A stretch of 64,000 bases of DNA, taken from the NCBI RefSeq assembly GCF_963921235.1, contig NC_086097.1, forward strand, positions 145,330,001 through 145,394,000, given 5' to 3'. The notes beneath the pieces were generated by a model. That model ran no database searches. It was not told where the DNA came from and was given only the letters and a program-made list of their open reading frames with translations. The stretch is from Mobula hypostoma. Taxonomy: Eukaryota. Both the position numbers and the translations under genes were made by a program. Positions 1 to 20,164 of the stretch are shown piece after piece. The number at the start of each line of letters is the position of its first letter. The stretch's first letter is position 1.

Positions 1-453
1 ATGAAATTGCTTGGCTTGATCTGTGTTTTAAAGTAGACACAATAATACCTTGGGTAATCTGCTGGACTAGGGATAACTTCCAAATAATGTTATTTATGAG
101 GTGTTCTTTGGTTGGACATTACATGCAGGTTTGAGAGTGTTGGGGTCTGTGCTTGTCCTGCATGATTCAAGCTGGTTACTGAAGAGAACAAAGAGCCACA
201 AATGACAGCACAATAAATGGATGCTGGCTAGGAGCAGAGCCATTAAAAAGCTGTTAAATGTCAGATACATGACCAATAGTCAGTGACACGAATGAAATAT
301 TTGAATTGGTGAGAAATGAGTATAAAAGCGGAGGTGTTCATGTACAAGACAGGGATGACTCTGCCAGAGATTCACCATTGTGGATGGGAGGTGGCACGGT
401 TACACAAGGAACACAAGGCCAACTGCAGAAACTGGTAATAATCCGTGAGCCGG
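1..453 (+). repeat. 5' LTR, left part (U3/R), interrupted by a DNA transposon
   Basis: Diverged direct repeat of 10623-11097. TATAAAA at 321-327 matches TATAAAA at 10966-10972. Confidence 0.9.
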
Positions 454-3400
454 TAGGGTTGGTCGGTACCATCTGAGGGGAATAATGCTCATTGTGATTT
501 TTGGTAAGGTATACATCTCTAGAGTTAGAAAATATGTGATAGCATTGCACCAGTGGTAGTTTTATGTGTGCTATCATGCATTTTATAACACTATCCTAAC
601 ATAAGCATTTCTGAAAAGTGGCCAATATAAAGTACAGCATATATATTCAACCTAGTGGCATTTTGTCATCAGTGATCCCGCAGCATTGAAATTTGTCACA
701 ATGATAGCTGAGTTCAAGCACTTTTCATCAAATGTTGTTATAAAATTCTACATTGAAAACTATGTCATTGGTGGCACTCACAGTACAGTGCCCAATTTCA
801 GTGTAGAGTGAATCATCTCATTTTTAGAAAAAATATCTGTCTGTTGTTTATTTTGAAAAAGGCAATAAAAACCCTAGGAGACATATAATCACATGGATTT
901 GTAGAGAATTTATTCAGAAATTCAAATATGTAATCACTTTTTGTATATATTCCATATTAACATCAGTACAGCAGAAAACGTTACCACCCCCCCCCACCCC
1001 AAAGGTAAAAAAAAACCTCAATTGAAGAGATTTCTGGAGTTTTATCAATGTCATATTTTCCATATTGTTGTATCAAATCAAAACAACCTTAAGCTTTTGT
1101 CATAGCATATATAATTCAAATGTGGGGTTCCAGACAGCCGTAACCTAGGCCCCATTTGTTGTAAGATGAATATATTTAATCAAAGACTGCTTTCCATACT
1201 TTGTTTTCCATACTTTCATAACTTATTAATGATCATAATAATTTTCCAAGTCTTCCACATCTTCATCTGAACTTTCCATACTCTCTGAGGTGGATGCCTG
1301 GTTCTCAGTCTGCCAGTCTACACATGTCAGTACACCTGAGGCCATTTGCAACACACATACATCTTGGGAGTGAACATTTTTTTGGACAGTTACAGGCCAG
1401 TAGATCCAGGACGGCATCGGGTGCTGGCTGGCCTTCCATCCAGTGCACCACCAACTGTTCAGCTTCCTCTTCTCTCTCCATCTTCCATCCTCTGCCAACA
1501 GGGCTTGCACTTGTGGATCCTTCTCCAAACATCTTCTCCACATACCAGCCTGGTGGTTGGCTTGCTGTGCATGTTTTATTAAGCAGTTCTTGTGTGGTGG
1601 GAGTTGACGACTTTCAATTTCACCTTTTTTGGCACAGAAAAAGTGATACCTGAGCTCATTGACCTTGGTGGTCGATGCTTTTGGGGCATACAGCAGATAT
1701 GTAAATGCCTCCAGTTTGTCCATCAGTTCTGGGGAGAGGTCTTATTCCTGACCCAACTCTAAGAGTGTGTCCCGAGTTTCCCTGTTGCTGGTCAGAAGTT
1801 TTAGGGCACTTGTCTTCCCTCTGCCTGCAAAAGCGCTTACAGTGTCACATCCTGTATATGTGTGCAATCCGATGAGAGCCCTACAAACCTCTATGCCAAC
1901 AGTGGCAGCAACCTTCCTGGTGTCTACACGCCTTGTACGGGTTCTAGTGCCACACTTCTGGAACAATGGGGCCTCAATCTTGTCACAAAATGCTAAAGAC
2001 ATGATAAAGACATCTGTGTCTTCTGAGCAGATCACTACAGATTGGTATCCTTCTCTTGTGGCATGAGTAGTATGGAGAAGTAGGCGGCCATCTGCTTCTT
2101 CTTGTTGACACTGAAGAGCTGACACCTCGTCACCGTCTTGAGATGTGATTATGTATCATTTGTCATTCACAGTTGCATACAGAATCTTCTCCTGTAGCTT
2201 TGCTCTGTGCTCTGCCTTCCTCCATTCATGGACTATGAAGCTAACAAGACTATTTTTGTTACTGACTTTGGTTAGGAAGCTCCTCCACTGCCTCACCATC
2301 TGTGTGCCTGTGATACCTTGCAACTTATGACCAGTCTCTTCACCCCGTAGAGATCTTTCACTATTCTTGTAAGAGTTCTCTTTGTATGTGTTGAACACAA
2401 TATCTATTCTGCTCCTTTGATTGCCTTCCCTCAGAGCCATACCCAGAATTGTTGTGGCAACATCTCTGAAAGTAACTTGATCACCTTTCACTCTTTGGAC
2501 CAAGTTTACCCCAAAAACCACTGTAGCAGAGCTTCCTGGGAGTTGCTCTTCTACTGCTACATTTTTCTGCAAGGTTGTGGCTAAAGTAGCTTTATTTGTC
2601 TTTCTCAACATCCTTCTGGTGTGGACAGGGCCTTGGGCAATGGTCCAAGGGGATAAGAAAGGATATCCTCCCTACGTAGACTGCACCCTTGTGCCATCAC
2701 TATGAAGCGTCCAGACAAAGACCTGTCTGCTTTTAAGATGATCGCCTTCCCATTTGATTTCACTTCTCTCTTCTTACACATATCACTGAATGTTTTCAGC
2801 TTGTTGGTTTTTATTGGGTTATGGAATTTCTTTGCTGCTGGGTCTTCCTCTAGTCTCTCATCCTTGAAAGTTGCATAGCATTCCTCACCAATCTCATATG
2901 CCTTCATCAGGTTGGGGGCTGCCTTTGCCGTAGAAAAGCTGATGAGGTCCTGCTTCTCTGCAAATGGGTTGACCCATTCATGAACGAGGCTAACCACTGC
3001 TGAAACTGCTTCCTCATCTTTCTGGATTCTTGACCGCTGTAGCTCCGCATTACAAAGCTCTGATTTGTTGCCTTGCACCATCCCCCTTAACTGTCTCAGG
3101 AAAGCACTGCAGTGCTCAGTTGTTATGTAGTAACGCTTGATAGCCCCAGCATTCAGGCTGAGCCGTGATGCGCCTCCAAGAGTCTGTGTGTTCACTGTGG
3201 CTTCAATAGCCTGGTCCACAGGGATCTGCCCAAAGGGTTGTTACTTGACAGCTGCACTGAGAATAGGCCTGTCTTGAAGGCCTCATACACAGAAGGATTC
3301 TTCTCTGGGAGGTTCATCATCTGAGCAAAGTAAGGGGACAGGTACCTGGCATAATTCATCTTATCATAGGCGAAGCACCATGGGATCATGGTTCTTATAG

Positions 3401-3536
3401 CATGGAGGTACAACTCCCAGTCCCCCTCACAGAAAGCTACCACTGCTGCAATACTATCACATATTTTCTAGCACTAGGATTTATAGCCAAAAATCACTAT
3501 AAGAATTACTTCCCCCAGATGGTACCTGTGGCCCAA
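454..3536 (-). mobile_element. AcademX-type DNA transposon, internally deleted
   Basis: Imperfect ~105-bp TIRs (454-563 vs 3433-3536, e.g. GGTACCATCTG / CAGATGGTACC). Minus-strand fragments carry GDWELYLH..FAYDKMNYARY, DQAIEATVN, XPG/FEN1-like EEADGRLLLH..SEDTDV..TGCDTVSAF, and a Cys-rich CNCPKKC..CMC..C..C. Confidence 0.75.
1226..3443 (-). pseudogene. Fragmented Academ transposase / XPG-like nuclease / Cys-finger ORF
   Basis: ORF pieces 3192-3443, 2605-3219, 2156-2611, 1742-2125, 1226-1723 and 1305-1541 form one frameshifted reading frame. The N-terminal half is deleted: the ORF abuts the right TIR. Confidence 0.8.
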
Positions 3537-3716
3537 ATTTGGGGTCCTGGCTCACAGACTGTTATATATTTCCTATTCTTTGACTGCTCATGGAAGGTCA
3601 GGGGAGCTTAGCAGGTTCACGTGTTCTTTCGTTGAGACAATGAAGATACTAGTTGGTAATTACAGATTCTCTGTGCGCCTCCCTGATCATTATCGCAAGG
3701 ATTGATTTTTGTAATA
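3537..3716 (+). repeat. 5' LTR, right part (R/U5)
   Basis: Aligns with 11116-11156 and 11310-11442. Ends TGTAATA where the 3' LTR ends TGTAACA. Confidence 0.85.
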
Positions 3717-3720
3717 GAAA

Positions 3721-3738
3721 CGGCATCCCTGGGTAAGC
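3721..3738 (+). promoter_or_regulatory. Primer binding site, tRNA-Asn-like
   Basis: CGGCATCCCTGGGTAAGC matches TGGCGTCCCTGGGTGGGC (complement of the vertebrate tRNA-Asn 3' end) at 14/18 and starts 4 nt after the LTR end. Confidence 0.7.
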
Positions 3739-3849: not shown

Positions 3850-5680
3850 CTGCAAGTCGGACTTGAATTGTTCCGATTGGAGGCGATTCCTCCAGATGTA
3901 CGTACGTAACTGGGGAAATGGCCGGAATATGGGGAGAATGCTGGATACACCAACGGTGACGGCGGCGAAGCTCTTTTTAAAAATGCCAAAGCGAAACGGT
4001 CAGACAAAGAATTTAAGCAGCTGTTGCCTGCCTCATTAAGGATTTTAAAGAATATCAGCAAAAAGCTGACGTCAAACGAGATAGGTTACAACAGGAAATC
4101 CTGGAATGTCGGTAAAAAGCAGAAGATGTGCGAAGTTGATTACAACAGGAAATCCTGCAATGTCGGCCAAAAGCAGAAGCCAAGCGAGATAGATTACTAC
4201 TGAAATCCTGCAACGTCGGCAAAAATCTGAAACTGAGCGAGACAGATTTCAACAGGAAATGCCGGAATATCAGCAAGATACTAAGGTACAGCGGGATAGA
4301 TTCGAAGACCAAAAGGCTCCAAAAGCTGGTAGAAAAACTTAAGGGAAAAGTTATGGATTTGCAGGAACGGGGAACTATGGATTTGGTGTATATGAACAGA
4401 TTCCAGTTGAAATCTGAGAAATTGGTTAAAGAAGGTAACCAGAAGGAAGAAGTTAATTTCGCTAAGAACGAATTGGGGGAATTAAAGAAACCGTGCAGTG
4501 ATTTAAAAGCAGCTCTGAATGTCATAGAGAAATCAGTACACGAAAAGAAACACAATACCAGCGATCATACAAAGTATTGAAAATAGACACAATAGCTGTA
4601 GGACCAACTTGCTGCAGAGGGAGGAATAATATGTGTTTTTGGATCTAAAAGAGGTGTGGAGAGTGAATACGGAGATATGACAAGATTAACCAAATAAAGT
4701 GACCACATATGAGGACCTTCTAATCGAGAGCCCCCGCCCCCCAACCACCCTACCCCCCCCGCCCCCACCCCGCTACTATCAGAGAGGGAGGTGCCGAGGC
4801 AGGAAATCAAAACCGGATTATAACATACACTGTAGCAGTTAGAGTATAGCAGCTGAAGGATTGCTAGGGATATCGGGACATATGTGCCCGGGGAATAATT
4901 CTCGGGAAACATTCCAAGCAATTAATTACCAGAAAGCAATACTTGGACTAGATTATACTGAACAAAGAATTGATTATAATGTGCCTGCATCCGAACATGC
5001 ACATCACTTTGCCAGTAATATCGCGACAGCTGGCGAAATAAATGAAGCGGTAAAGAATGTGATACTGCCTATTATGGGTAATAACAGCGGCGACCCAATA
5101 GACTAGTTACGTAAGTGTTACCAGAGGAAAGAACACCTCGCTGCATTTGCATCTATGGATCGTGTTCCAAGGGGTATATGGATCAACATTAGATCGCGAT
5201 CATTTAGAGCCAGAACCCGCACATAGATGGTTAAGAACATTAGTGCCCAACAGCACGAACAAATCTAAATAAATGTTGGAACTGTTTGATCCCAGTCACT
5301 CTACACATACTGAGGCATGGGTACTTAGGAAAATAATTGGAGCATGGGAGAAGGAAGTGCGGGAGCTACATTTTAACTTCAGGAATAGTCCAGAGGCAGC
5401 TAACGTGTTTTCCCTTCAAGAAAATACACAGAATATCGTGTGGGGAAATGCGGGTCAGGTCAAGAGCCGGCGGAGAGATTGTAGAAGAGAAGAAACACAG
5501 TGCTGGAATGCACCTTCACCCAATATGGGAAACTTCTGTCGTGAGCAGTGCAGTGCTCAAATCTTTGGTCGTAATGCCTGGAACTGTACAGCACAGTTCA
5601 TGTAATTTAAATCCTAACAAAAATCAGAGATTGGAGCTACAGAGGAGTCAGAATATGTCGGAATTTTGGTTAATGTGAAG
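3850..5680 (+). pseudogene. gag: gag-like ORF remnant with coiled-coil N-terminal region and proline-rich linker
   Basis: Lies after the PBS. Fragments 4353-4580, 4861-5106 and 5273-5605, plus EPPPPNHPTPPAPTP at ~4730-4772. Many stops and frameshifts; no clear CCHC knuckle. Confidence 0.65.
4056..4270 (+). repeat. Four tandem 54-bp units (18-aa coiled-coil repeat) inside gag
   Basis: Units start at 4056, 4110, 4164 and 4217 (the third is 53 bp). Approximate consensus peptide QQKAEAKRDRLQQEILEC. Confidence 0.9.
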
Positions 5681-5994
5681 ATTTCATGCTTTGAACTTGT
5701 TGAATGTTGTTACTTGGACATGATTTCTGTGTCGAGTAATACACTCCCTCAGTTTTGTCGGATTGTAACTGAATATTTTGGTAACAGTTTCACCCTGAGG
5801 AACAAGAGATTTTCTGAAATGATTTAAAGTGTATATGGTTTGCATGTTTCAAGTGTGGCCATTCTGAATTCATTTCAGAGAGAGAATCCGCGAGAGACGG
5901 TAGTAGAGAGAGTACTTTTAAGAGATTGTGCCCTTAGGAGACTGCATCAATATATTAATGTGTCAAGGGTCCCCACCCAGCAGTTTTTTCCCCC

Positions 5995-6262
5995 ATATAA
6001 CCACATAACAATTACAGCATGGAAACAGGCCATCTCGGCCCTTCTAGTCGGTGCTGAACTCTTAGTCTCACCTAATCCCACCGACCTGCACTCGGCCCAT
6101 AACCCTCCATTCCTTTCCTGTCTATATAGCTATTCAATTCAACTTTAAACGACAACATCGAAACTGCCTCAACCACTTCTGCTGGAAGCTCGTTCCACAC
6201 AGCTACCACTCTCTGAATAAAGAAGTTACCCCTAAACTTTTGCCCTTTAACTCTCAACTCAT
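5995..6262 (-). mobile_element. CR1 LINE 3' fragment
   Basis: ORF 6072-6257 NFFIQRVVAVWNELPAEVVEA is the CR1 ORF2 C-terminus; CATATAAC-type tail. Confidence 0.85.
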
Positions 6263-7074
6263 GAGTTCCTCTCAGTTTTTTTTTGAAAAATGTGTGAAAG
6301 CTTTTTGGGGTCCTAATTAACTGTCTATTTTAAAGTTCCCAGTCACTTATGGAAGGTCCTAAAGGAATAACAGTGCAAGCATGGATTTTTGTTTGTTCTG
6401 TCTGTGTTTTTTGTTTGTGTTTCTTTACTTGTTTTCCATGGAATTGAATTTAGAGGAACTCAGATTCCACAATGGCCAGGTGTAATCTGGGTTGAGGATG
6501 AAATTTGTGCATCTCTGTTCTAGATATTTCTGAAGGAAATTGCTCATTGGTGGACGGTAAAATTTGAAATTTGAACTTAACAATTTGGGAAGATTGGAAC
6601 ATTTGGGGACCAATCCTAAAAATTGCTTTTACTAACAAAACTGCTTTCATTTACAGAATATAAAAGATACTGCTCAAGACTTTTGACATATTGATTTTGA
6701 GTCTGAGATCCCTTGGAAAATAATTTTGAAGCAACCAGTGCTTTGTATGTAAAGTGCAAATGGAAGTTCAATTTTGGACTGGTTCAAACAGCATTTCAAC
6801 ATTTATCTAGCTACTGCTGGATGTTTGAATTAAAATGTTTTGGCACTGCAGGGCTGAGATACCCCTGTAAAGGGTATTACAATGTTTACCTTCCTTGCAG
6901 ATAGTCTTTATTGTACTGGAGAACTGCAGGGGGTCAGGATATAATAGCAAATTATTCCAAGGGTCTATTTCTGTCAAAATAATTTGGGGGGAGGGGTGGA
7001 AGGAGATTAAAAAGCAATACCCGAGAACAAAGGCACAAGGGGAAAACACAAAGGAAAAAGCCCTATTTTAATTT

Positions 7075-7520
7075 TTTTTGTCGATGACTCCTCATCAGTA
7101 CAGATGGGTGAGAGGAGAACTGTATGTGGTACATACTGTATGCAGAGAATGAATATGGCCATACAATAAAGGTATAGTATAGCTTTAAAGTTACCCTACA
7201 CTATAAATGCACAGCAGGAGAAGTGACAGCTGCAGCATATGTGGTTAGCCACCAAGAATGTTTTCTGCCCGGACCAGTCATACACTCTGTTAGTAAGAAT
7301 GTTTGTAATAGGCTTACAGAACATTTGCCTCTTTGGGAAGTAAGAATGTTTGTTTCAGCTAACGGAAAGCCCCTCTGACCTGCTGCTCAGTTGCAGTATA
7401 TTTTTGAAGAAGCGAATGAAAGAATACAGAGTCATGAAGATGAAAGCTCAGTCTAAATTATCCCCTAGGGTAATAAGAATGCTGAATTAGTGAATGGGTA
7501 AGAATGACAACTACAGATTA
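7075..7520 (+). pseudogene. RNase H remnant of pol
   Basis: Hand translation gives VDDSSSVQMGERRTVCG..ALKLPYTINAQQ..EVTAAAYVV..LTEHLPLWEVRMFVSANGKPL, matching the DGS / AQxAE / W..F...GK pattern. Confidence 0.7.
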
Positions 7521-7619
7521 AGGAGATGGGAAGGCAGAAGGAGCAAACAGTTAAGGTTATGGATTTAACTGAGGAGCAAAAGGAAGATACGGAATTAAAA
7601 AGAAGTGTAAAGAAAGGAG

Positions 7620-8440
7620 CCCTCCAACATTCCAGACCAGTGAAAAGGCCTTGGACTAATGCAGATTATACTGAACCTTTGCCACGCACACCAGGAGGGT
7701 ACAAATATATTCTTGTAGTTGTAGATAATTTCACCAAGTAGAGGTACAAACACGGACAAAGCCACAGCAAAAATCTGTTTTGGTGTTTTTCCTCACCAAA
7801 GATCAACTCAGAGTACAGAATCAGATCAAGGCACACATTTTACAGCCTAGGTAGTGCAATATGATATGGCAACTTTAGAAATTAGGCAGAGATTTTACAT
7901 GCCCTATAGACCACAGTCTACTGGAATTCTGGAAAGGACGAACTGCACATTAAAAAATATGATGGCCAGAATGGTGCAGCAACATGGAACAACAGGGCAG
8001 GTAGCTTTGCCTTATGTCCTGATGATGATAAGGAATACAGTGGCTTTATCAATGTGTTACACTCCTTATAAACTCATGACTGGAAAGGACATGAGATGGT
8101 TGGAGGTGTTGTTAGGATTAGACTTGTTAGAACTAGACTTGTTAGAACCCAAAATAGATGGGTTGGTGTCTGAAAAGTGGGTACAATAATTGGTAGAGAT
8201 GGGAAAAAAGGCCAATTATGTGGCAGCCCATCAACTATGAAAGAACGGCAACAGAATAAAGCCTACTTTGACTCAAAAGTCAGTCCCATAGAATTGTCCA
8301 GAATGAAGTGATGATTAGAATATACTATTTCACCTAATTTTTAAATCCAAGGTTTGGGGGGCCCCAATGAAATTACAGACAAAGCAAGTCCATCAATATG
8401 CAGGGTACTGATTTCTACTGATAAAAGTGAAGCATAATCA
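7620..8440 (+). pseudogene. Integrase remnant (core and GPY/F-like C-terminus)
   Basis: PLPRTPGGYKYILVVVDNFTK, SDQGTHFTA, YRPQSTGILERTN, TPYKLMTG and FLNPRFGGPNEITDKASPS. Confidence 0.9.
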
Positions 8441-8899
8441 CACTGTTGAAATTGGTGGGGGAGAAACAGGAAAGTTATCACCATCGGCATGTAACAATTG
8501 ATGTCCATGATGACATTCATTTTGGAGACTTGACAATCAATATACATGTCAATCCTGATTTGTCAGATTTGGGGTTGGAAAAGCTGTTCCAAGTAAATGG
8601 TGACAAATTTGACCAGGGAAGCATTATCCTGTTCTCTCAGTCAGAGAATCAGGGGAATTTTGTTAAGAAATAAAATAAAAGGAAAAATTTGCTTGCTCCA
8701 GCCTCCTCTATCCTGAATTGGAATTGGGTGGGAAAAGATGGATGGCTTCAGTCCACAGACATTTGGGAGCCTGGATTGGATCAGTCAGAAAACCATGTAG
8801 AAGCTATGGACAAAATGATTTATGATTGAAGTTTGAAACTGGAAATAAGAGCAGAGGTTACACTTGTGTGTTACAGGTTTAATTTGGTATCACAGGAAT

Positions 8900-10308
8900 A
8901 ATGCAAAATCAACTACCCTTCAACCTCAAGTAGCTGAAAGTACGGCAAAGTATAAATCTAGTGAGACCCAATGTAACACAAAGGGGCAGGAATAGTGTTA
9001 GGAAATACAGGGGAATTTGTCACTGTGCTACCAGGGTACCAACATGTGCAGGTAATTTTTAATCTAACTGAAATAAAGTACCAGAATGGTACTTATTTAC
9101 AATGGGATAGCTACTCGCTAATTTTCTTGGGACACAACTAAGCAGGAGTGAGTTTAAGGCAGTCCAAAATAGAAAGAAGAGAGGACTATTGGAATTAATG
9201 GAAGCATGTTATGCAGGGGTATAGCAACAGTTGACACTTTAGATATAGCAGAATTCGGAAACCAGATATGATCCCTTTAGCAGAAAATGTGGGATACTAC
9301 TGGAGAAAATTATCAGGATACAACTTAATGCATATCAAGGACCAAATCGGGTATCAGATGAACAACTAAAACAAGGGGATTGGGGAAAGTGCCCTTGTGT
9401 CATACGAGAAGGCTTATACTAACCAACAGAGTAGAGGGTACCTGTGATTACGATAAAGAAAGGTTTTATGTTGGTGCGGTATTTCATATTTCAACATGGA
9501 AATAATTCAACCTACTCTTTGAAAAGAGTTCACAGTGTGGGCAAATATCATGAGAAGAGTTGGATATTCTTAAGTAACCTACCAACACATGCTATTGTTA
9601 TGAATGGTATTGGAAATGGATAGAATTATCAAGGTGTCATCAAAGGAAGAGACCACTGGGCTTGCCCAGTGGAGATGACATGACATGAATTTGTGAATTA
9701 TGGTTTCATTAATGAGAATTGTTCATTGTCTAATCTACCTATAAATAATGAGTTTTTCTTACAATATACATTGTTGTGAAGACGTATTATGGCAACAGTA
9801 ACGAGTTATACCAGGGGATGGAAATAGTATCCTTGGAACATCATGATGTTGCTATTAGGAGCATGGCTTTAGACTGGACTATTGGAGAATAAACTTTGTC
9901 TCAGCCCAGCGGTGGATAAGGTAATGAAGGAGAAGCTTACAATCCTACAAACTGATACGGATTGACATTTGTGGGAGTATGTTGTTACCAAATTGCCATT
10001 GATTCTTCATATGACTGCTGACAGGATGAGTTGTGGAGGAGGCAAAGGAGATAATCCATCAATGGACTAAGCATACAAAAGTTATAAGACATGCTGATAA
10101 AGCAAATGACATATTGAGTAACACAGACCCTTGGGATAAACTTTGGAACTGGGGATCAAATGATCAAATACATCCATGGATGAGGATAATATCATATGCT
10201 GCTGTAGTATCAATTTCATGTAATCTGATAATGGTATTGTTTAATTGTATCACCTCAGGAGCAGAAAGGCTGAAGTTGTACAAGTGGAAGAGGATAATGG
10301 TTTTGTAA
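8900..10308 (+). pseudogene. env: env-like class I fusion glycoprotein remnant (F-protein-like layout)
   Basis: GAGIVLGNTGEFVTVLPGYQHVQVIFNLTE (~8984-9075); furin site RKKR|GLLELMEACYAGV at 9171-9221; heptad-like IATVDTLDIAEFGNQI; Cys-rich IELSRC..DHWACP..NCSL; membrane-proximal WDKLWNWG..IHPWMRIISYAAVV and a TM stretch in ORF 10033-10308. Confidence 0.75.
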
Positions 10309-10477: not shown

Positions 10478-10490
10478 AAGAGGAGGGGGA
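10478..10490 (+). promoter_or_regulatory. Polypurine tract
   Basis: AAGAGGAGGGGGA directly before the 3' LTR. Confidence 0.85.
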
Positions 10491-11442
10491 AGTTGGCTAG
10501 CAAGAACCACAGACTATGGATGTCAGATGAATCAAGGACAGGCCAATTGTCTTTGTTCTTGCCATGAGGAAGGAGATGCAAGTTGCCATTTAATGAAGAG
10601 ACTGTGTCTTCTATTTTGTGAGATGAAGTTGCTTGGCTTGATCTGTGTTTTAAAGTAGACATGATGATGCCTTAGGTAATCTGCTGGACTAGAGATAACT
10701 TTCAAATAAGAAGTTATTTGCAAGGTGTTCTTTGATTGCATATAACATGCAGCTTTGTGATTGTTGGGCTCTGTGGCTGTCCTGTGTGATCTGAGCCGGT
10801 CACTGAAGAGAACAAAGAACCATAAGTTGCCTGTTGTCACTTGCTGGAGAGAGCCATAAATGGATGCTGGCTAGGAGCAGAGCCAATAAAAAGGTGTTAA
10901 AAGTCAGACACATGATGAACAGCTAATGACAATGGAATGCAATATTTGAATTGGCGAGGAATGAGTATAAAAGCAGAGGTTTGTATATACAAGACAGTGA
11001 TGTCTCTGTAGGATATTCATCAATGTGGATGTGAGGTGCCCCACAGATGCGGAGATTCAAATCAGGTCTGCAAGGAACATGAGGCAAACAGCAGAAAGTT
11101 CTTTTTTTTAAGATGGTATTATATTTTCCATTCTTTGCCTGTTCATGGAAGGTTACAGAAATTCTTGTTTGGTCAGGCCATGAAGGGTTTTGGGGAGAAG
11201 GCAGGAGACTGGGGCCGAGAGGAAAATAGTATCAGCCATGATAAAATGGTGGTGAAAATTCAATTGGCCAAATGGCCTAATTCTGCTCCTATATCTTATA
11301 GTCTTATGGAAAACTTAGTAGCTGTGCACACAAGGATTTGGTTGTATAAGTTCACATGTTCTTCCATTGGGACAATAAAGGTACTTGTTCATAATTACAG
11401 ATGTCTCTCTGATTATTATTACAAGGGGTGATTCTTGTAACA
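10491..11442 (+). repeat. 3' LTR, containing a CR1 3'-end insertion at ~11157-11308
   Basis: Follows the PPT; TATAAAA at 10966, AATAAA at 11374-11379, ends TGTAACA; homologous to the split 5' LTR. Confidence 0.9.
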
Positions 11443-11509
11443 GACTTGGTGGGCTGAATGGCCATATTCTGTTCCTTTGTCTTATGGTCTTATCTCCCCA
11501 TTGATTCTT

Positions 11510-11980: not shown

Positions 11981-12183
11981 ACACAATATCTGCAGATGCT
12001 GGAAATCCAAGCCACACACACAAAATGCTGGAGGAACTCAGCAGGTCATGTAGCATCTTTGGAAAAGAGTAAACAATTAACGTTTCATTCCGAAAAAGGG
12101 TCTCAGCTGGAAACATCAACCGTTTGCTCTTTTCCATAGATGCCGCCTGGCCTGCTGAGTTTCTCCAGTATTTTCTGTGTGAT
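11981..12183 (-). mobile_element. Penelope-derived fold-back short element
   Basis: Inverted arms ACAAAATGCTGGAGGAACTCAGCAGG / CCTGCTGAGTTTCTCCAGTATTTT; the same sequence ends the Penelope at 58140-58235. Confidence 0.75.
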
Positions 12184-13927
12184 GCATGTTATATCCAAGC
12201 TTCATTTAGTACATATTAAAAAGAAACAGTTTGGTCCCAGATGGAGTACACTCCCCAATTCTGAACGCAATATCCTTGGAAAGAATATCAGGGCCTTCCA
12301 AAAGCAGTTAGACAGAGGATTTAATAGAATGCAATTGTGAATGAAAGTAGAGATACTGGACAAACTGTGGTTTTCCTTGAAAAAGAATTAAAAAAATAAT
12401 AAAAACATTATACTGATCTATCTGCACTTCTATCTGTCCATATTATGACTATCAAGATCTTGGAAAGATTTTGATAATTAGTAGGCAAACTTTCTCCACT
12501 GGAAGAATGAGGATCAGTAAACAAAGGACACAGATTTAAGATGATTGAGAGATAAACTGAGGGAAAATAAAAAGTTTTAAATTCTGTGCAGCGGATCAGG
12601 AAAGCACCACTTGGAAGAGTAGTGGGTAGTACATTCAATAAAATCCTTTATGGAGTCTTGCAAATACCCAAGGTAAGAAAGTTGCAGAATGAGGTGGAAT
12701 GAATGGCCAACCACCTGGATAGCTTTTCCAAACACCGAACACATGAAGACACAACAAAACTCCCCCTTTGTCCTGTTATCCCAGGGTTCCATATGCCATC
12801 ATGCAGCTAACTTGCAGACAGTTCACTAACAGTGATGTAGTGAGTGTGTGCGGTTGTGGAAAATGTGATTTGCATGCCACCATCCATTTTGCCTTTTTTC
12901 CAATCACACTTCCGAAAACACAAAGAAATACATCATCACAAGCATGCGTAGCCTTTTGATGAAGCAATGAGAAAATAGCTCATTTATGAAAAACAATTGA
13001 TTTGCATAACTTGAAAGTTAGCAGAACAGAATTAGCTGAAAAGAGTGGGAAGTGAGAAAGTCAGCCTTGTCTTCGCTTTTCTCCAAAAGAAGCCGTGAAA
13101 TCACCTAATCATTTTGTCCCCTGGTTTGAGTGACAGGTGAAGGACAGCATGCTGCTCCTTTTCACACAAAACATTTCCAACAAGTATCAAGAATTTTCTC
13201 CTTACCATTTTAGTTCAAAAGGATCAACAAGTTAAATCTGTGAGAAAATACCTGAATTATGAAATTAGCCTGCATAATCAAATAGTACCCAGCAAAGACA
13301 TGGATTTAGAGGCAATGTTGGTGCATGGATCTCGTCATTGGATTAGAAATTAGTTCAAAGGTTAAAGAAAAAACAGAAGGATGATGAAAATATGCTCTTA
13401 ATAACAGGATGTGAGATGATATTAATGAGGGTATGGTAATAGTCATCAACATGCATTTCCCATACCAGTTGTGGCAAGGTTTGCATGCTATGACAGGCCA
13501 CAGTATGAAGTCAGACAGCATTGTGACAATGATTCCTCTCTTCCCGGTAAGAATGCAATTCATGTACATGTTGAACCGAGTAGGAATGAAATGATGCTGT
13601 CCATCCTGATAAGCCTCCAACCACCAGTCCCCATAGTGTTATCGTAGCTTTCAGATCAGCCTTCCTGAAAGTGAACCGAAAGAATGCACCGGCCTGGATG
13701 AAATCCTGGCTGTGCTTTCAGATTCCCCGTGGATCAACTGGTGGAAGCATTTGCAGATATTTTTAGACTCTCCCTACTACAATCAGAAGTTCACCCGTTT
13801 TCAGAAGACCACCATCACTCTGGTGAAAAAAAAATTCCAAACTCCTCGACCTATGCAACTCCCTCTGCAACTGCACCTTTGACATTCTAACCAACATACG
13901 GCTATCAGTAAGCATAGGCAGGGATAT

Positions 13928-14110
13928 CAGCAGGTCGGGCAGCATCCGTGGAAAAGATCGGTCGACGCTTTGGGCCGGAACCCGAAAGGACGAAGGGTTC
14001 CAGCCCGAAACGTCGACCGATCTTTTCCACGGATGCTGCCCGACCTGCTGAGTTCCTTCAGCGTGTTGTGAGTGTGGCTTTGACCCCAGCATCTGCAGAG
14101 TATTTTGTGT
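13928..14110 (+). mobile_element. Young Penelope-derived fold-back insert with 14-bp TSD
   Basis: ATAGGCAGGGATAT at both 13914-13927 and 14111-14124. 13928-13983 is a near-perfect inverted copy of 13995-14050. Confidence 0.9.
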
Positions 14111-14654
14111 ATAGGCAGGGATATGTCTGCCACAATTATCCTCAGCAATGCCAACCTGTATGCCATGTCCTTAGACCCCACATTAGACCCTCACTATACA
14201 CTCATGACTGTGCAGCCAGATTCTGCTTTAATTCTGTCCACAAGTTTGCAGATGGCACCACCATAGCTGGCTGGATCTCAGATAACCTGTCGATAAAAGA
14301 GTACAGGAAGGAGATACAGTGCATAGTGATATAGTGTCAAGACAGCAACCTTTCCCTCAAGAGCTGGCCATTAAAGTGGGTGAAGAGCTGCCCCTCCTGT
14401 ATGTATCAATGGTGCTGAGGTGGTCCAGCATGTAAATATCACCAATATCTTGTCCTGGTTCAACAACATAGATACTATAGCCAAAAAAGCATACCTCTCT
14501 TTCCTCAGAAGGCTAAGAAAATTCAACATGTCTCTATTGATCACTGCCATTTTTTATAGATGCACCATAGAAAGCATCCTAACCTGGTGCACCAGAGCTT
14601 GGTATGGGGACTGCCCCAAGACCTCAAAACTGCCAAATATATGCCAATATCGGT

Positions 14655-15258
14655 AATCTGTCAAGTAGGGTGCCATGTACAATTCTGATTTGATGGAGAC
14701 AGACGTGAGAGAACAGAGGAACATCTGGAGAAACTTCTGAAATGCCTTTTACACTGCCGCTGTTACTGTGTGATCCTGAATCTCTGGAGGGGAAGGCCCT
14801 GAATCCTCGGCTTTGCTTGTTGCTCAGCGGCTGGGACGGGGTCGAAGTGCTCAGCAGAGATGGTGCTCGGTGCTGAAGGGCTGGTTGGAGGCTCGTTTTT
14901 GGACGGACTCAGAGTCGACTGGGGTCAGGTGCTTCCAAGGCATCGACAGTTGTCGGTGTCGGAGGTTTATGGCAGAGAGAGTTTCTCCCTTCTGCCGCCT
15001 GCTATCAGGAACTATCGGGAGTCGATCAGAACTTTGAGATTTTTTTTACCGTTCCCATGGTCTGTTCTTTATCAAATTATGGTATTGTTTGCACTGCTGT
15101 AACTATATGTTATAATTATGTGGTTTGGTCAGTGTTAGTCTTTGGTTTGTCCTGTTTTTTTTGTGATATCACTCTGAAGGAACATTGTATCATTTCTTAA
15201 TGCATGCATACATTTCTAAATGACAATAAACGAGGACTGAGTGTCCTCATAATCTAAT
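14655..15258 (+). mobile_element. Non-coding SINE-like element with a LINE-type tail
   Basis: CpG-rich body and a TGACAATAAA..CATAATCTAAT tail; it interrupts the Rex1 element. Confidence 0.5.
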
Positions 15259-15267
15259 ATAGCTTGT

Positions 15268-15715
15268 ACAGACATCGTTCTGTGGTCTACCGAAGACAAG
15301 AGAATCATCCTGGTGGAGCTCACAGTACAGTGGGAGGAAAGATGTGAGGAAGCTCATGAGAGGAAGGACCAGGAGTGCAGGGACAAAGGATGGCAGACGT
15401 GACTATTCCCCGTAAAGATCAGCTGTAGATGGTCCAGCAAGCTCAGCATGGAGGCTGTTGTCTGTGTTGGGCCTTGATGAAAATAGCAAGAACCAAGCAG
15501 CTCTCTGAAAGGGGGTGGGGATGGGTGGGAAGGAAGCAGCAAGAGCCTCTTGCCAGATATGGAGCAGGCAAGAGGAGCAGATGGACAGTGACTTGGCCAA
15601 CACTGCTGACCTGCCAACTGGAGTGTGTTGTGGTTAAGGGTTGAAACACTATGAAGGTTGGGCACCACCTAACGACATCTTCTCCTGGCAGTTACCAGAT
15701 GAGGTAATCATAGCC
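15268..15715 (+). mobile_element. 3' fragment of a restriction-like-endonuclease non-LTR retrotransposon (HERO/R2-group)
   Basis: Translation from 15271: DIVLWSTEDKRIILVELTVQWEERCEEAHERK..ECRDKGWQT*LFPVKISCR, and later EAARASCQIW. This fits the PD..ELTVPWE..ERK..KY..GW..VEVGCRG RLE motif. Confidence 0.8.
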
Positions 15716-15809
15716 TTTGGCCAGGAGAACAGCCTCCCCTCCACTGTTCTGTCTACACCTCCCACTGCCTCAAGAAAGCAGCCAAGATAATCAGAGACGG
15801 CTGCCAACC

Positions 15810-16945
15810 CAATCAGATCAAGTTTATCATCACCGGCATGTGACATGAAATTTGTTAACTTAGCAGCAGCAGTTCAATGCAATACATTATCTAGCAGAGA
15901 GAAAAAATAATAAATAAAATAAAAAATAATAAATAAGTAAATCAATTATGTATATGAAATAGATTTTAACATGTGCAAAAATAGAAATACTGTATATTAA
16001 AAAAAGTGAGATAGTGTCCAAAGATTCAATGTCCATTTAGGAATCGGATGGCAGAGGGGAAGAAACGGTTCCTGAATCACTGAGTGTGTGCCTTCAGGCT
16101 TCTGTACCTCCTGCCTGATAGTAATAGTGAGAAAAGGGTATGCCCTGGGTGCTGGAGATCCGTAATAATGGACAATGCTTTTCTGAGAGATCACTCGCTA
16201 AAGATGTCCTGGCTTTGTAGGCTTGTACCCAAGTTGGAGCTGACTAGATTTACAACCTTCTGCAGCATTTTTTGGACCTATGCAGTAGCCCCTCCATACC
16301 AGACAATGATGTAGCCTGTCAGAATGCTCTCCACAGTACAACTATAGAAGTTTTTGAGTGTATTTGTTGACATGCCAGATCTCTTCAAACTCCTAATAAA
16401 GTGTAGCCACTGTCTTGCCTTCTTTATAACTACATCAATCTGGTGGACCAGGTTAGATCCTCAGTGATCATAACACCCAGGAACTTGAAACTGCTCACTC
16501 TCTCCACTTCTGATCCCTCTGTGAGGATTGGTATGTGTTCCTTCGTCTTACCCTTCCTGAAGTCCACAATCAGCTCTTCATCTTACTGACGTTGAGTGCC
16601 AGGTTGGTGCTGTGGCACCACTCCACTAGTTGGGCATATTTCACTCCCGTACGCCCTCTTGTCACCACCTGAGTGAGATTCTACCAACAATGGTTGATTC
16701 GTCAGCAAACTTATAGATGGCATTTGAGCCATGCCTAGCCACTGAGTCATGTGTACATATAGGGTAGAGCAGTGGGCTAAGCACACACCCCTGAGGTGCG
16801 CCAGTGTTGATCGTCAGCGAGGAGGATATGTTATCACCAATCCACACAGCCTGTGGTCTTCTGGTTGGGAAGTCAAGGATCCAATTGCTGAGGGAGGTAT
16901 ATAGGCCCAGTTCTGCAACTTCTCAATCAGGATTGTGGAAATGAT
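15810..16945 (-). mobile_element. Rex1/Babar LINE, 5'-truncated
   Basis: ORF 16662-16847 has [14 protein letters not shown] and KFADES. Confidence 0.85.
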
Positions 16946-17894
16946 CATTCTTTCACATCTTTCAGGCAATATGTATCAAAGCTTGGAAACATACACCACC
17001 AATCTCAAGGCTAGCTTCTATCCTGCTCTTCAAAGACCCTTAAACAGACATCTTTCATGATAAAGATGAACACTTGATCTCCTGACCTTTCTCATAGTGG
17101 TCCTTGCACCTTACTGTCTGTCTGCACTGCATTTTCACTGTAAACTCTAACTATATTCTGCATTCTGTTGCTGCTTTTCTCTTTATACTATCTCAATGTG
17201 TTTATTTTGAAATGATCTGTATGGATAGTACTGTATCTCAGTACATGTGACAATAATGAACCAATTTCCATGGATGAAAAAAAAATTATAGTACGTATCT
17301 TCAGCAGTTGCATGTTAAAAAGAGATTATTCAAATTCAGTGAAAGGGAAATTTGAAATGATAATGAAGTTTATAGATATGAGACATTTATAGGTTCAAAA
17401 AAAATCGTATTGCTTAATGGAATATTTGACTTCATTTCTAGGGGACTAGAAAGTTTGCCTACAGTTATACAGAGGCTCGGTCAGGAACCATCTGGAATGA
17501 GTACCACACCATAACCACTCATGTATGCATTGACTTTTCCTGGCAATTCACCCACTCTATTTTCATTGAGACGTCATTCTGTTAGATTACCCTATATTCT
17601 GATTACTGAAGGTTTTTTTTAGCTCCTTATTAGTGAGTTCCTTGTTCAGTACTTTTGATCTCATCATCATATGATTGTGATCAAATCAGAAGGCATAGAT
17701 TGAAGCCTCGCTCCAGAAGACATGACATTGATACTACTGAGCCGAAATATACTTGTGTAAATCTGAAGTGATTGAATTGTTATTAAACACAATTAGTCTT
17801 AGGTAACATGAATCAAAGATTTTTAGATTGGCAACAATAATGGAGAAGTAACTACAACATTGAAAATAATGAGAATAATGTACTCTCTACTCAC

Positions 17895-18023
17895 AGTTAA
17901 TTTGCTTCCAAGAGAGTTCCAGAGAGCTTTGGTTAAAGAAGCCACATCCAGTGTCTGTTGAATCCATTTGTTAAGATCTATGAATGTCGCAAGAGCATCT
18001 GTGATAGGTTTTGTCTCTGGGTT
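17895..18023 (-). CDS. ALS2CL: ALS2 C-terminal-like protein, coding exon (phase 0/0)
   Basis: ttttcag|...|gtgagt, 129 nt, NPETKPITDALATFIDLNKWIQQTLDVASLTKALWNSLGSKLT; resembles human ALS2CL HHPTRELVVNAVTLFGNLQSFMKQELDQAVATQALWHTLRGRLR (recalled). Confidence 0.9.
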
Positions 18024-18712
18024 CTGAAAATGAGCAAGAGGAGAAACCCCAAATAATTGAACTGAACTTCCTTGTATAATTCCCTCACTTTGATCTTACT
18101 TTATGTAAGACCTCTCACTCAATGTTTTAACTGACAGTTAACTCCACAAACCAACTCCATATTGCATTTCTAGATCAGATTCTAGAAAAAAATAGTTGAA
18201 GAGGAATTAGATAAATAGTAAATGATTAAAAGTTTATAGGGAAAGCGTAAAGAGGAATGGGGCATGCTGAACTGAATGATCTGCATCATAAGTTCAATCA
18301 TAAGGTTTATGTTTCTTCTTAATAAAGACAAAACTTTGTGTGGGTAAACACCAAAACATTTTCTTTACAATATGGCTACAGCTTAACACTGAGCGCATGC
18401 GACCAGCTCACTATCATAGCTTCCAGTGCTGGGGTGAACTGCCAGCGTAGCCCACTGGAAACTGAAGTTCTTTTACTATATGCAATCATAGTAATGCAAT
18501 AAGGTCCAATTCCAATAGTGTAGGATCACACCAAAAGTTAATACATTCAGAAATCACAATTTGTAGTCAACGAGCTTGGATTTCATTGGCTTGCTGATTA
18601 TTAAAGGAAGAAAAGATTGACAGGCAAGGAATCTTAAACTAGTAAAAGAAAGAACATAAAACATAATTACTTCTTTCAGTTTGGTACTTAATGAAAAATC
18701 ACTGGATGGTAC

Positions 18713-18948
18713 ATAAACACAAAATACTCTGCTGATGCTGGGATCAAAACAACACTCACAACACGCTGGAGGAACTCAGCAGGTCGGACAGCATCCGTGG
18801 AAACGATGAGTCGACGTTTCGGGCCGGAACCCTTCGTCAGGACTGAAAAGGGAAGTGGCAGAGGGCCTATAAAGAAGGTGGGCCCCCACTCATCTTTTCC
18901 ACGGATGCTGCCCGACCTGCTGAGTTCCTCCAGCGTGTTGTGAGTGTT
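18713..18948 (-). mobile_element. Penelope-derived fold-back insert with 12-bp TSD
   Basis: TSD ACTGGATGGTAC (18701-18712) / ACTGGATGATAC (18949-18960); inverted arms of ~60 bp. Confidence 0.85.
18809..18844 (-). ncRNA. Minimal type I hammerhead ribozyme-like motif
   Basis: Minus strand reads AGTC-CTGACGA-AGGG(TTCCGG)CCC-GAAA-CG-TC-GACT. Confidence 0.65.
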
Positions 18949-20164
18949 ACTGGATGATACTGTTTTTTGAAAATTGTGTGTCTATTTGACATTTGTCTGT
19001 CCACTATTTAAACTGAAGCAAAATTTATTTTGCTTGAACCCTAACCTTGGTAAACCCATACAGAGGAATTTAATGTATTAACTATTTATTTTCTAATATC
19101 AGATGGTAATTTCTAGTTTAGAATTAGAAGGTCAGTCGTTATTATTCAACTTGCTGCTAGAAGCTGAAAGTCTCAGCCCGAAATGTTGACTGCTTATTCA
19201 CCTCCATAAATGCTACCTGACATGCAAAGTTCATCCAGCATTTTGTGTGAGATATTCTGGATTTCCAGCATCTACAGAATCTTTTGTGTTGCTGCAATGG
19301 ATTTTCTATCACTCAGATATATTCAGAATCAATTACTTAAGGAATTTTAATATAAAATTGGTCATCTCTCATTATTATTACAGGTTTTGGTCAGATTTTA
19401 CTGTTGAAATCTTTAGCTCTAGATATGAAGAATACTACATATACTGGCCTATCAGTACAGACATTGATTCTAGGTTCAAATCTGATCAGATGAATCTTGC
19501 AGCAGATCCAGGTAAAATTTCTAAATCCTCATCAACAGTATATCAGTTCTGGTTCTGAATTACTGCATTTTTAACTCCAAAGAATAATGAGGACAGCTGG
19601 CCGTTTCTTAATGTCACAAATAATTAAATAACTGAATATCAAAGCGTCTTCCCTACACTAATCAGAATTATAATTCAGAACAGCAAAGGTAAAAACACCA
19701 TCTGCTTCCACCTAATTGGCATGTATGTTTGGCTGGAAAAACTCAGCAGGTTAGGCAGCATCTATCGAGGAGTGGAGATGGTTGAGGACTGCATAGGTTT
19801 TGTTGGAACCTGGCTGGACCTCTGTAAGCTGGAATAACCTGGTCAGGTGTAGCAAAACCCAAGCAATGATTAGGCAGCCCTTTCCTGATGGTCCATCTAC
19901 AAAGTTTCCCGGGCAGGCTTTGAAGTTCAATTGAAACGATGTTCATTAAGGCTTCAGATTTCAATGGGATTTCCTTCATTACTTAATAACATCAGGGATA
20001 CCAACAAGATATGGTATATCTGTACAGTATTTAGTCATCCAGCTGTAACCATGCAAATCCCATTGAATTCTAAGCCTGTGTTTATTCACAGAGATTCCAG
20101 ATCTTCAGCACAGTGTGCAAGTCTGTATTACTGTTTGTAATTTGAAATTCTGCAATGCACAGAC

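Follow-up and report, generated by a model that had tools for sequence, protein, structure and literature searches.

A Mobula hypostoma endogenous retrovirus family with a predicted F-type, lokiretrovirus-homologous Env and a reverse transcriptase that groups with canonical retroviruses

The window, the whole 64,000-nucleotide stretch of Mobula hypostoma DNA analysed here, contains one copy, dead and in part deleted, of an old and abundant endogenous retrovirus family. The best explanation, to which we assign a probability of about 0.8, is a dead, deletion-bearing provirus of a lineage with a reverse transcriptase (RT) on the side of the canonical retroviruses and a predicted F-type Env that is homologous to that of lokiretroviruses and carries an extra, likely receptor-binding, N-terminal domain. 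The original prediction had placed the element in a lokiretrovirus-like or otherwise unclassified env-bearing lineage. Lokiretrovirus membership was contradicted by the RT, which lacks the loki signature and is placed among the canonical retroviruses, and the fallback of an otherwise unclassified lineage holds.

Structure of the provirus and its deletion subfamily

An LTR provirus spans from about 150 nt upstream of the window to position 11442, with the following features.

1..3716, +: 5′ LTR, its start lying about 150 nt before the window in the adjoining stretch L021; matches the 10623-11444 region in blocks and is interrupted by a 3-kb insertion
465..3526, −: insertion inside the 5′ LTR, not viral and of later arrival, likely a DNA transposon
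465-504/3487-3526 and 519-568/3428-3477: arms of the terminal inverted repeats of this insertion
3721..3738, +: degraded primer binding site (PBS) of tRNA-Asn type, recognised from the PBS of sister copy L022
3900..5362, +: remains of gag, broken, covering the N-terminal coiled coil and the capsid region
5363..6932, +: segment replacing protease (PR), RT and tether, common to other short-form copies
6935..7480, +: RNase H remnant, 46% to the sister RNase H frame (E 7e-30)
7540..8430, +: integrase (IN) remnant, 63-71% to sister IN
8889..10308, +: F-type env remnant, interrupted by stops and frame changes and carrying two large deletions
near 8904-8920 and near 9319: the env deletions of the window copy
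9171..9182, +: furin site RKKR, followed by a likely fusion peptide
10180..10250, +: transmembrane segment (Kyte-Doolittle peak 2.2, 19-residue window)
10478..10490, +: polypurine tract, ahead of TGTTG; sisters L011 and L018 have it at the same position
10491..11442, +: 3′ LTR with a later internal insertion

The LTRs differ by a K2P distance of 0.18 over 530 sites, which corresponds to an age anywhere from about 40 to 400 million years depending on whether rates given in PMC4422223 and PMC10699275 or a mammalian rate are applied; the copy is old and its dating is poor. Three of the four bases of a candidate 4-bp target duplication match. Within the insertion in the 5′ LTR, broken, transposase-like frames were noticed on the minus strand, and a single short repeat family is present many times at positions 12005-19785 of the window, in several cases as close inverted pairs. 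The PBS of L022 is complementary to the 3′ end of host tRNA-Asn(gtt) genes; the PBS gave 20 genomic matches, and all four that were checked were of tRNA-Asn type.

The gag remnant is 39-57% identical to sister Gag frames (tblastn), and the Gag coiled-coil region at 4041-4302 contains three imperfect repeats at 54-nt spacing. No trace of PR, RT or tether was present in the window copy. The segment in their place gave no match to sister PR, RT and tether by tblastn or blastn, and matches the copies L027, L032, L034, L036, L029 and L028 in part; a stretch inside it, at about 5995-6272, matches a dispersed repeat. The sister RNase H frame matches PF00075, and the window IN joins that of four sister copies with support 100/100.

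The sister copies carry PR, RT with YIDD, tether, second RNase H and IN with H2C2. Tether and second RNase H appear as PF17919/PF17917 followed by PF00075, a feature shared by all retroviruses. Sister Gag ends with a CCHC knuckle (PF00098), and an in-frame TGA lies at the gag-pol junction in three of the four copies that show this junction. RT and a long env occur together in one provirus (L022/L008). In another sister copy, L026, a different deletion has brought mid-RT and env directly together.

The env DNA has at least 69 matches at 70-85% identity in the 3.48-Gb genome, among the best 40 of 341 candidates. Sister L008 retains a stop-free env frame of 548 codons, in which the furin site lies about 300 residues after the first Met. 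Comparison with L008 shows two losses in the window copy: one of about 610 nt near 8904-8920, which took a 200-residue N-terminal domain and the greater part of the likely signal peptide, and one of about 194 nt in the heptad region, near 9319. The same 610-nt loss, with identical breakpoints, was found in 10 of 19 copies aligned to L008, the window copy included; in an eleventh copy the loss is approximately the same, two copies retain the block, and the remaining six were not scorable. The further 194-nt loss is seen in four copies. The N-terminal domain that the window copy lacks has at least 152 matches in the genome among the best 150 of 272 candidates and is partly present in the Heterodontus protein P0002, and the 610-nt block therefore belongs to the ancestral env.

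The position of the furin site only about 300 nt into env had been taken as a trait of the virus, and is instead due to this subfamily-specific deletion of about 610 nt; a short N-terminal subunit is thus no viral feature. Accordingly, the F-like layout first proposed stands as regards the type of Env, and its short N-terminal subunit is a deletion artefact. The undeleted N-subunit has about 300 residues versus about 116 in the natural loki Env L053, and the C-terminal subunit has about 440 residues in both undeleted family Env and loki Env.

A derived subfamily, to which the window copy belongs, has lost PR-RT together with the signal and accessory domain of Env. Although the short form is without RT and the Env signal region, it exists in many copies with common breakpoints, so its packaging and copying were likely provided in trans by intact relatives. 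In itself the window copy is ordinary genomic debris.

The Env protein and its relatives

The motifs reported for the window env were seen in the sequence: RKKR at 9171-9182 and GLLE at 9183-9194, then a peptide of moderate hydrophobicity and a heptad-like helix, with Cys-rich blocks at about 9380-9900 ahead of the transmembrane helix. As had also been described, the remnant has many stops and frame changes and is spread over three frames. The CKS-17 pattern was absent from the window env and from 20 loci, and the sole match to CX6CC in the window is antisense and runs across a stop. In the Env alignment A3 the furin motif R-x-x-R is invariant.

The F-type assignment of this Env is well supported. 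Against natural loki Env, from loci L052-L054 obtained by way of the loki RT motif, the family Env profile reached HH 96.95-97.67% (E 1.3e-10 and 2.2e-12) over 280-310 columns that start at the furin site and take in the Cys-rich domain, at an identity of 15-17%. The Env is homologous to lokiretrovirus Env, as the original prediction had implied. Other Envs scored 1.0-1.5% (15 foamy frames), 1.2-1.6% (12 gamma frames) and 0.3-1.6% (8 beta-set frames, one of which, L101, is not Env), and 20 shuffles scored at most 0.41%. With neither CKS-17 nor CX6CC and with these scores, the Env is not gamma-type. The Env of the snakehead-type L142 aligned to the family profile weakly and in register after the furin site with HH 43-60% (E 9e-5; shuffles of L142 reached at most 0.4%), and that of the epsilon-type L110 likewise weakly and in register with HH 16-23% (E 9e-4); both alignments suggest that the uncharacterised Envs of L110 and L142 may be F-type as well.

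An AlphaFold model of the Env was weak (pLDDT 52.7, pTM 0.37), with residues 1-237 unreliable. In a fold search with this model against 48,161 chains, ranks 1-13 were all foamy Env (two chains) or paramyxovirus/pneumovirus F (11 chains), at Z 5.2-9.0 and rmsd 4.6-16.6 with one match above Z 8; unrelated coiled coils had Z 5.1 or less. The best match was a foamy Env (Z 9.0, rmsd 9.2, 182 aligned). An F-like fold is not diagnostic of lokiretroviruses, as foamy virus Env is also described with such a fold (PMC11468914). The first Atlas match was a PF00523 cluster (0.94), in which PF00523 is present in 47% of members, followed at places 2-4 by Baculo_F and Gypsy env clusters (0.93-0.94). By HMMER, PF00523 was found in none of the 12 Env alignment members; Pfam scans of 13 window fragments, three sister frames and these 12 members revealed no Env family, and PDB sequence searches with the Env gave no match.

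When the family Env profile was run against a large protein set, two Heterodontus proteins and no others were retrieved. A full HMMER scan gave 16 proteins, of which 10 were looked up; the nine with a named source were all from shark, sawshark or sawfish. The named Env relatives, the two Heterodontus proteins among them, are all chondrichthyan, which speaks for a cartilaginous fish as the likely host, as the original prediction had it. Two chondrichthyan gene models, P0079 and P0080, have short Env pieces fused to host genes, the model from Pristis being TRP-channel-like; such fusions may reflect mis-annotation or exonisation.

For the N-terminal Env domain, neither the structure model nor the Atlas gave a confident result, and in HH comparisons it matched Heterodontus P0002 alone (98%); the N-termini of P0078, P0086 and P0087 and the tail of P0004 all scored under 0.4%. 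An Ig-like nature, considered from the UniRef label of P0087, found no support (best Atlas match 0.76; the predicted model of P0087 has pLDDT 47). We noticed that the C-terminal tail of the frog protein P0004 has a signal peptide and an Ig-like stretch after pol, and P0004 gave no match in viral contigs. With the bamboo shark P0087 labelled Ig-like, frog and shark lineages may bear different N-terminal modules on the same F core. By analogy, the N-terminal 200 residues of the family Env likely served as a receptor module.

Gene order, motifs, homologies and deletions were observed directly; the ancestral virus would have worked as follows. Reverse transcription would have been primed by tRNA-Asn, and Gag-Pol would have been made by readthrough of the in-frame stop, giving a Pol of PR, RT, tether, second RNase H and IN. 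Furin would cut Env into an N-subunit of 300 residues, composed of signal, accessory domain and F2-like part, and a C-subunit of 440 residues. Cleavage would free the fusion peptide at the start of the long C-subunit, which may refold like paramyxovirus F1 into a six-helix bundle. This fusion mechanism is drawn from general knowledge of retroviruses and from the structures of F and foamy Env described in PMC11468914.

Placement of Pol and alternative origins

The family occupies a basal position and is class-III-like, its neighbours being frog and coelacanth elements and the snakehead retrovirus. Its RT has the motif PQGFHNSP, and PQG is also found in snakehead retrovirus (SnRV), foamy and gamma RTs; all loki and Odin RTs examined have PF[GA] in place of PQG (motif PFG..NSP.EFNIF). 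The best 13 of 70 RT matches were dual-RNase-H-type pols of frogs, Xenopus tropicalis, coelacanth and others, at 41-52% identity. The family RT L133 is 43-56% identical to frog, coelacanth and other pols, 46% to L142, 35-40% to foamy and epsilon, and 34% to loki. The top pol matches are annotated NYNRIN-like; the idea that these are loki pols was dropped after comparison with loki RTs themselves, and five motifs had no match in the available part of the loki supplement, where line breaks can hide some.

Three RT trees were made, with 57, 38 and 36 rows (19 of 57 rows being left out of the second, and 22 rows out of the third). The branch splitting Gypsy and loki from the family and canonical retroviruses had support of 100/95, 100/96 and 99/97 in these trees, which include three loki RTs and do not include Odin, ERV-L, ray-finned FLERV, CmiFLERV or XtrFLERV. 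The family RT lies outside the Gypsy and foamy clades, each of which forms its own clade at support 100. A clade of family and loki RTs was rejected by the AU test (p=0.015, the group having been defined after seeing the tree), and one of family and L142, with ERV-L not included, was not rejected (p=0.35). When L142 was added, the base of the retrovirus clade lost resolution. By its PQG motif, the RT trees and the AU test, the family is not a lokiretrovirus.

The other Pol domains give a mixed picture. In the RNase H tree (unrooted, 153 columns, with a long-branch warning) the family was found with foamy, loki and frog elements and away from L142, gamma and epsilon (98/95). In the IN tree, which does not include CGIN1, the position of the family was not resolved, and the IN of its frog and coelacanth neighbours joined loki. 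Pol is therefore not uniformly non-loki. For Gag, no profile match to L142 was detected (0.5%), and comparisons with L142 and L053 were uninformative.

An unlikely though serious alternative is a recombinant, that is, a basal canonical retrovirus to which a lokiretrovirus contributed the env and perhaps also the RNase H or IN. Such an origin would fit an Env that scores 97% to loki, 43-60% to L142 and under 2% to foamy, even though the RT is nearer the latter two, and domain swaps are described as common in that part of the tree (PMC7947760). The Env-loki identity of only 15-17% means that any swap would be very old, and the L142 and L110 Envs also align weakly in register, as shared F-type ancestry predicts. 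If true, recombination would be a variant of the best explanation, and the lineage would be uninformative on the ancestral Env.

It is very improbable that the family belongs to the lokiretroviruses proper, which would carry that group into cartilaginous fish. Its Env is most similar to loki Env, it shares with lokiretroviruses the dual RNase H, gag and pol in one frame and a coiled coil at the N-terminus of Gag, and its RNase H falls on the loki/foamy side; the RT evidence above and the Env N-subunit of 300 rather than 116 residues speak against membership, as does a search of the genome for loki-type RT, where nothing exceeded 38% among the best 150 of 15,168 candidates. Least probable of all is membership of the foamy viruses proper or of the Ty3/Gypsy elements, in the latter case as an env-bearing, errantivirus-like form: the Baculo_F and Gypsy env clusters in the Atlas, the foamy Env as top fold match and the tRNA-Asn PBS also reported for a newt foamy-like ERV (PMC5512871) are outweighed by the tether and second RNase H, where errantivirus and Ty3/Gypsy elements have a single RNase H, by the separate Gypsy and foamy clades (the tree having no named errantivirus), by the Gag CCHC knuckle and in-frame gag-pol, and by the lack of any sequence match to foamy Env.

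Env origins and comparison with known groups

With the family taken as a retrovirus-side lineage bearing a loki-homologous Env, it may tentatively, at somewhat less than even odds, be regarded as a bridge between lokiretroviruses and canonical retroviruses, F-type Env being ancestral and gamma/beta-type Env a later replacement. The RT at the base of Retroviridae, an RNase H of ancestral loki/foamy type and an Env alignable to loki, and faintly to snakehead and walleye-type Env, would agree with this. Receptor modules would then have been added at different sites, N-terminally here and internally in foamy viruses. Wang and Han (PMC9040795) favour independent Env gains in lokiretroviruses and canonical retroviruses, the reason stated there being that the two Envs have no detectable similarity; this premise falls, because a retrovirus-side RT and a loki-alignable Env occur in one family. 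Four published scenarios of Env origin become testable by an Env tree, and the family may supply the Env so far undetected for shark and frog foamy-like ERVs. We found no published statement of a retrovirus-side RT with a loki-type Env; PMC8223930 and, on endogenous foamy viruses of cartilaginous fish, PMC9972966 may already cover the family.

Lokiretroviruses (as described in PMC7947760) share with the family the F-type Env, homologous from the furin site to the Cys-rich domain and with a C-subunit of about 440 residues, the tether with RNase H, in-frame gag-pol and the Gag coiled coil. The family differs by its PQG-bearing RT among canonical retroviruses, the 200-residue extra N-terminal Env domain, the absence of a PF00523 match, short PR-RT spacing, a tRNA-Asn PBS and its chondrichthyan host; lokiretroviruses were found in none of six chondrichthyan genomes according to Fig. 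S1 of Wang and Han (PMC7947760), so that a lokiretrovirus in this host would have been new.

The foamy-like CmiFLERV and XtrFLERV share the basal position, and their shark and frog hosts match the top RT relatives of the family. The comparison rests on their published description and not on sequence, and their Env is not comparable, pol alone being reported as detected by Aiewsakun and Katzourakis 2017 (PMC5512871). The ray-finned AciFLERV and AliFLERV have RTs clearly different from that of the family.

Snakehead retrovirus, with clade Huo and class III ERVs including CmiERV lineage I, is treated in PMC4422223, PMC8922424 and PMC2717909. Its RT motifs are very similar to those of the family (46% identity), and SnRV-type elements also have a Gag coiled coil with zinc knuckle, a readthrough stop and an Env in register past the furin site. 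They differ in an RNase H across the 98/95 branch, in about 620 Env residues before the corresponding furin site versus about 300 in the family, and in the stop codon, TAG versus TGA.

Foamy viruses proper have pol in a separate frame and a Gag without zinc knuckle. Foamy Env has an F-like core and is the best structural match to the family Env, whereas the two have no sequence match; its receptor-binding domain is described as inserted just upstream of the furin site (PMC11468914), and the extra domain of the family lies N-terminal to the F core. A survey of anamniote Envs (10.1101/2021.11.23.469661) is confined to the gamma and beta types. Closest among published groups are the shark and frog FLERVs and the SnRV-like class III ERVs, named here without ranking.
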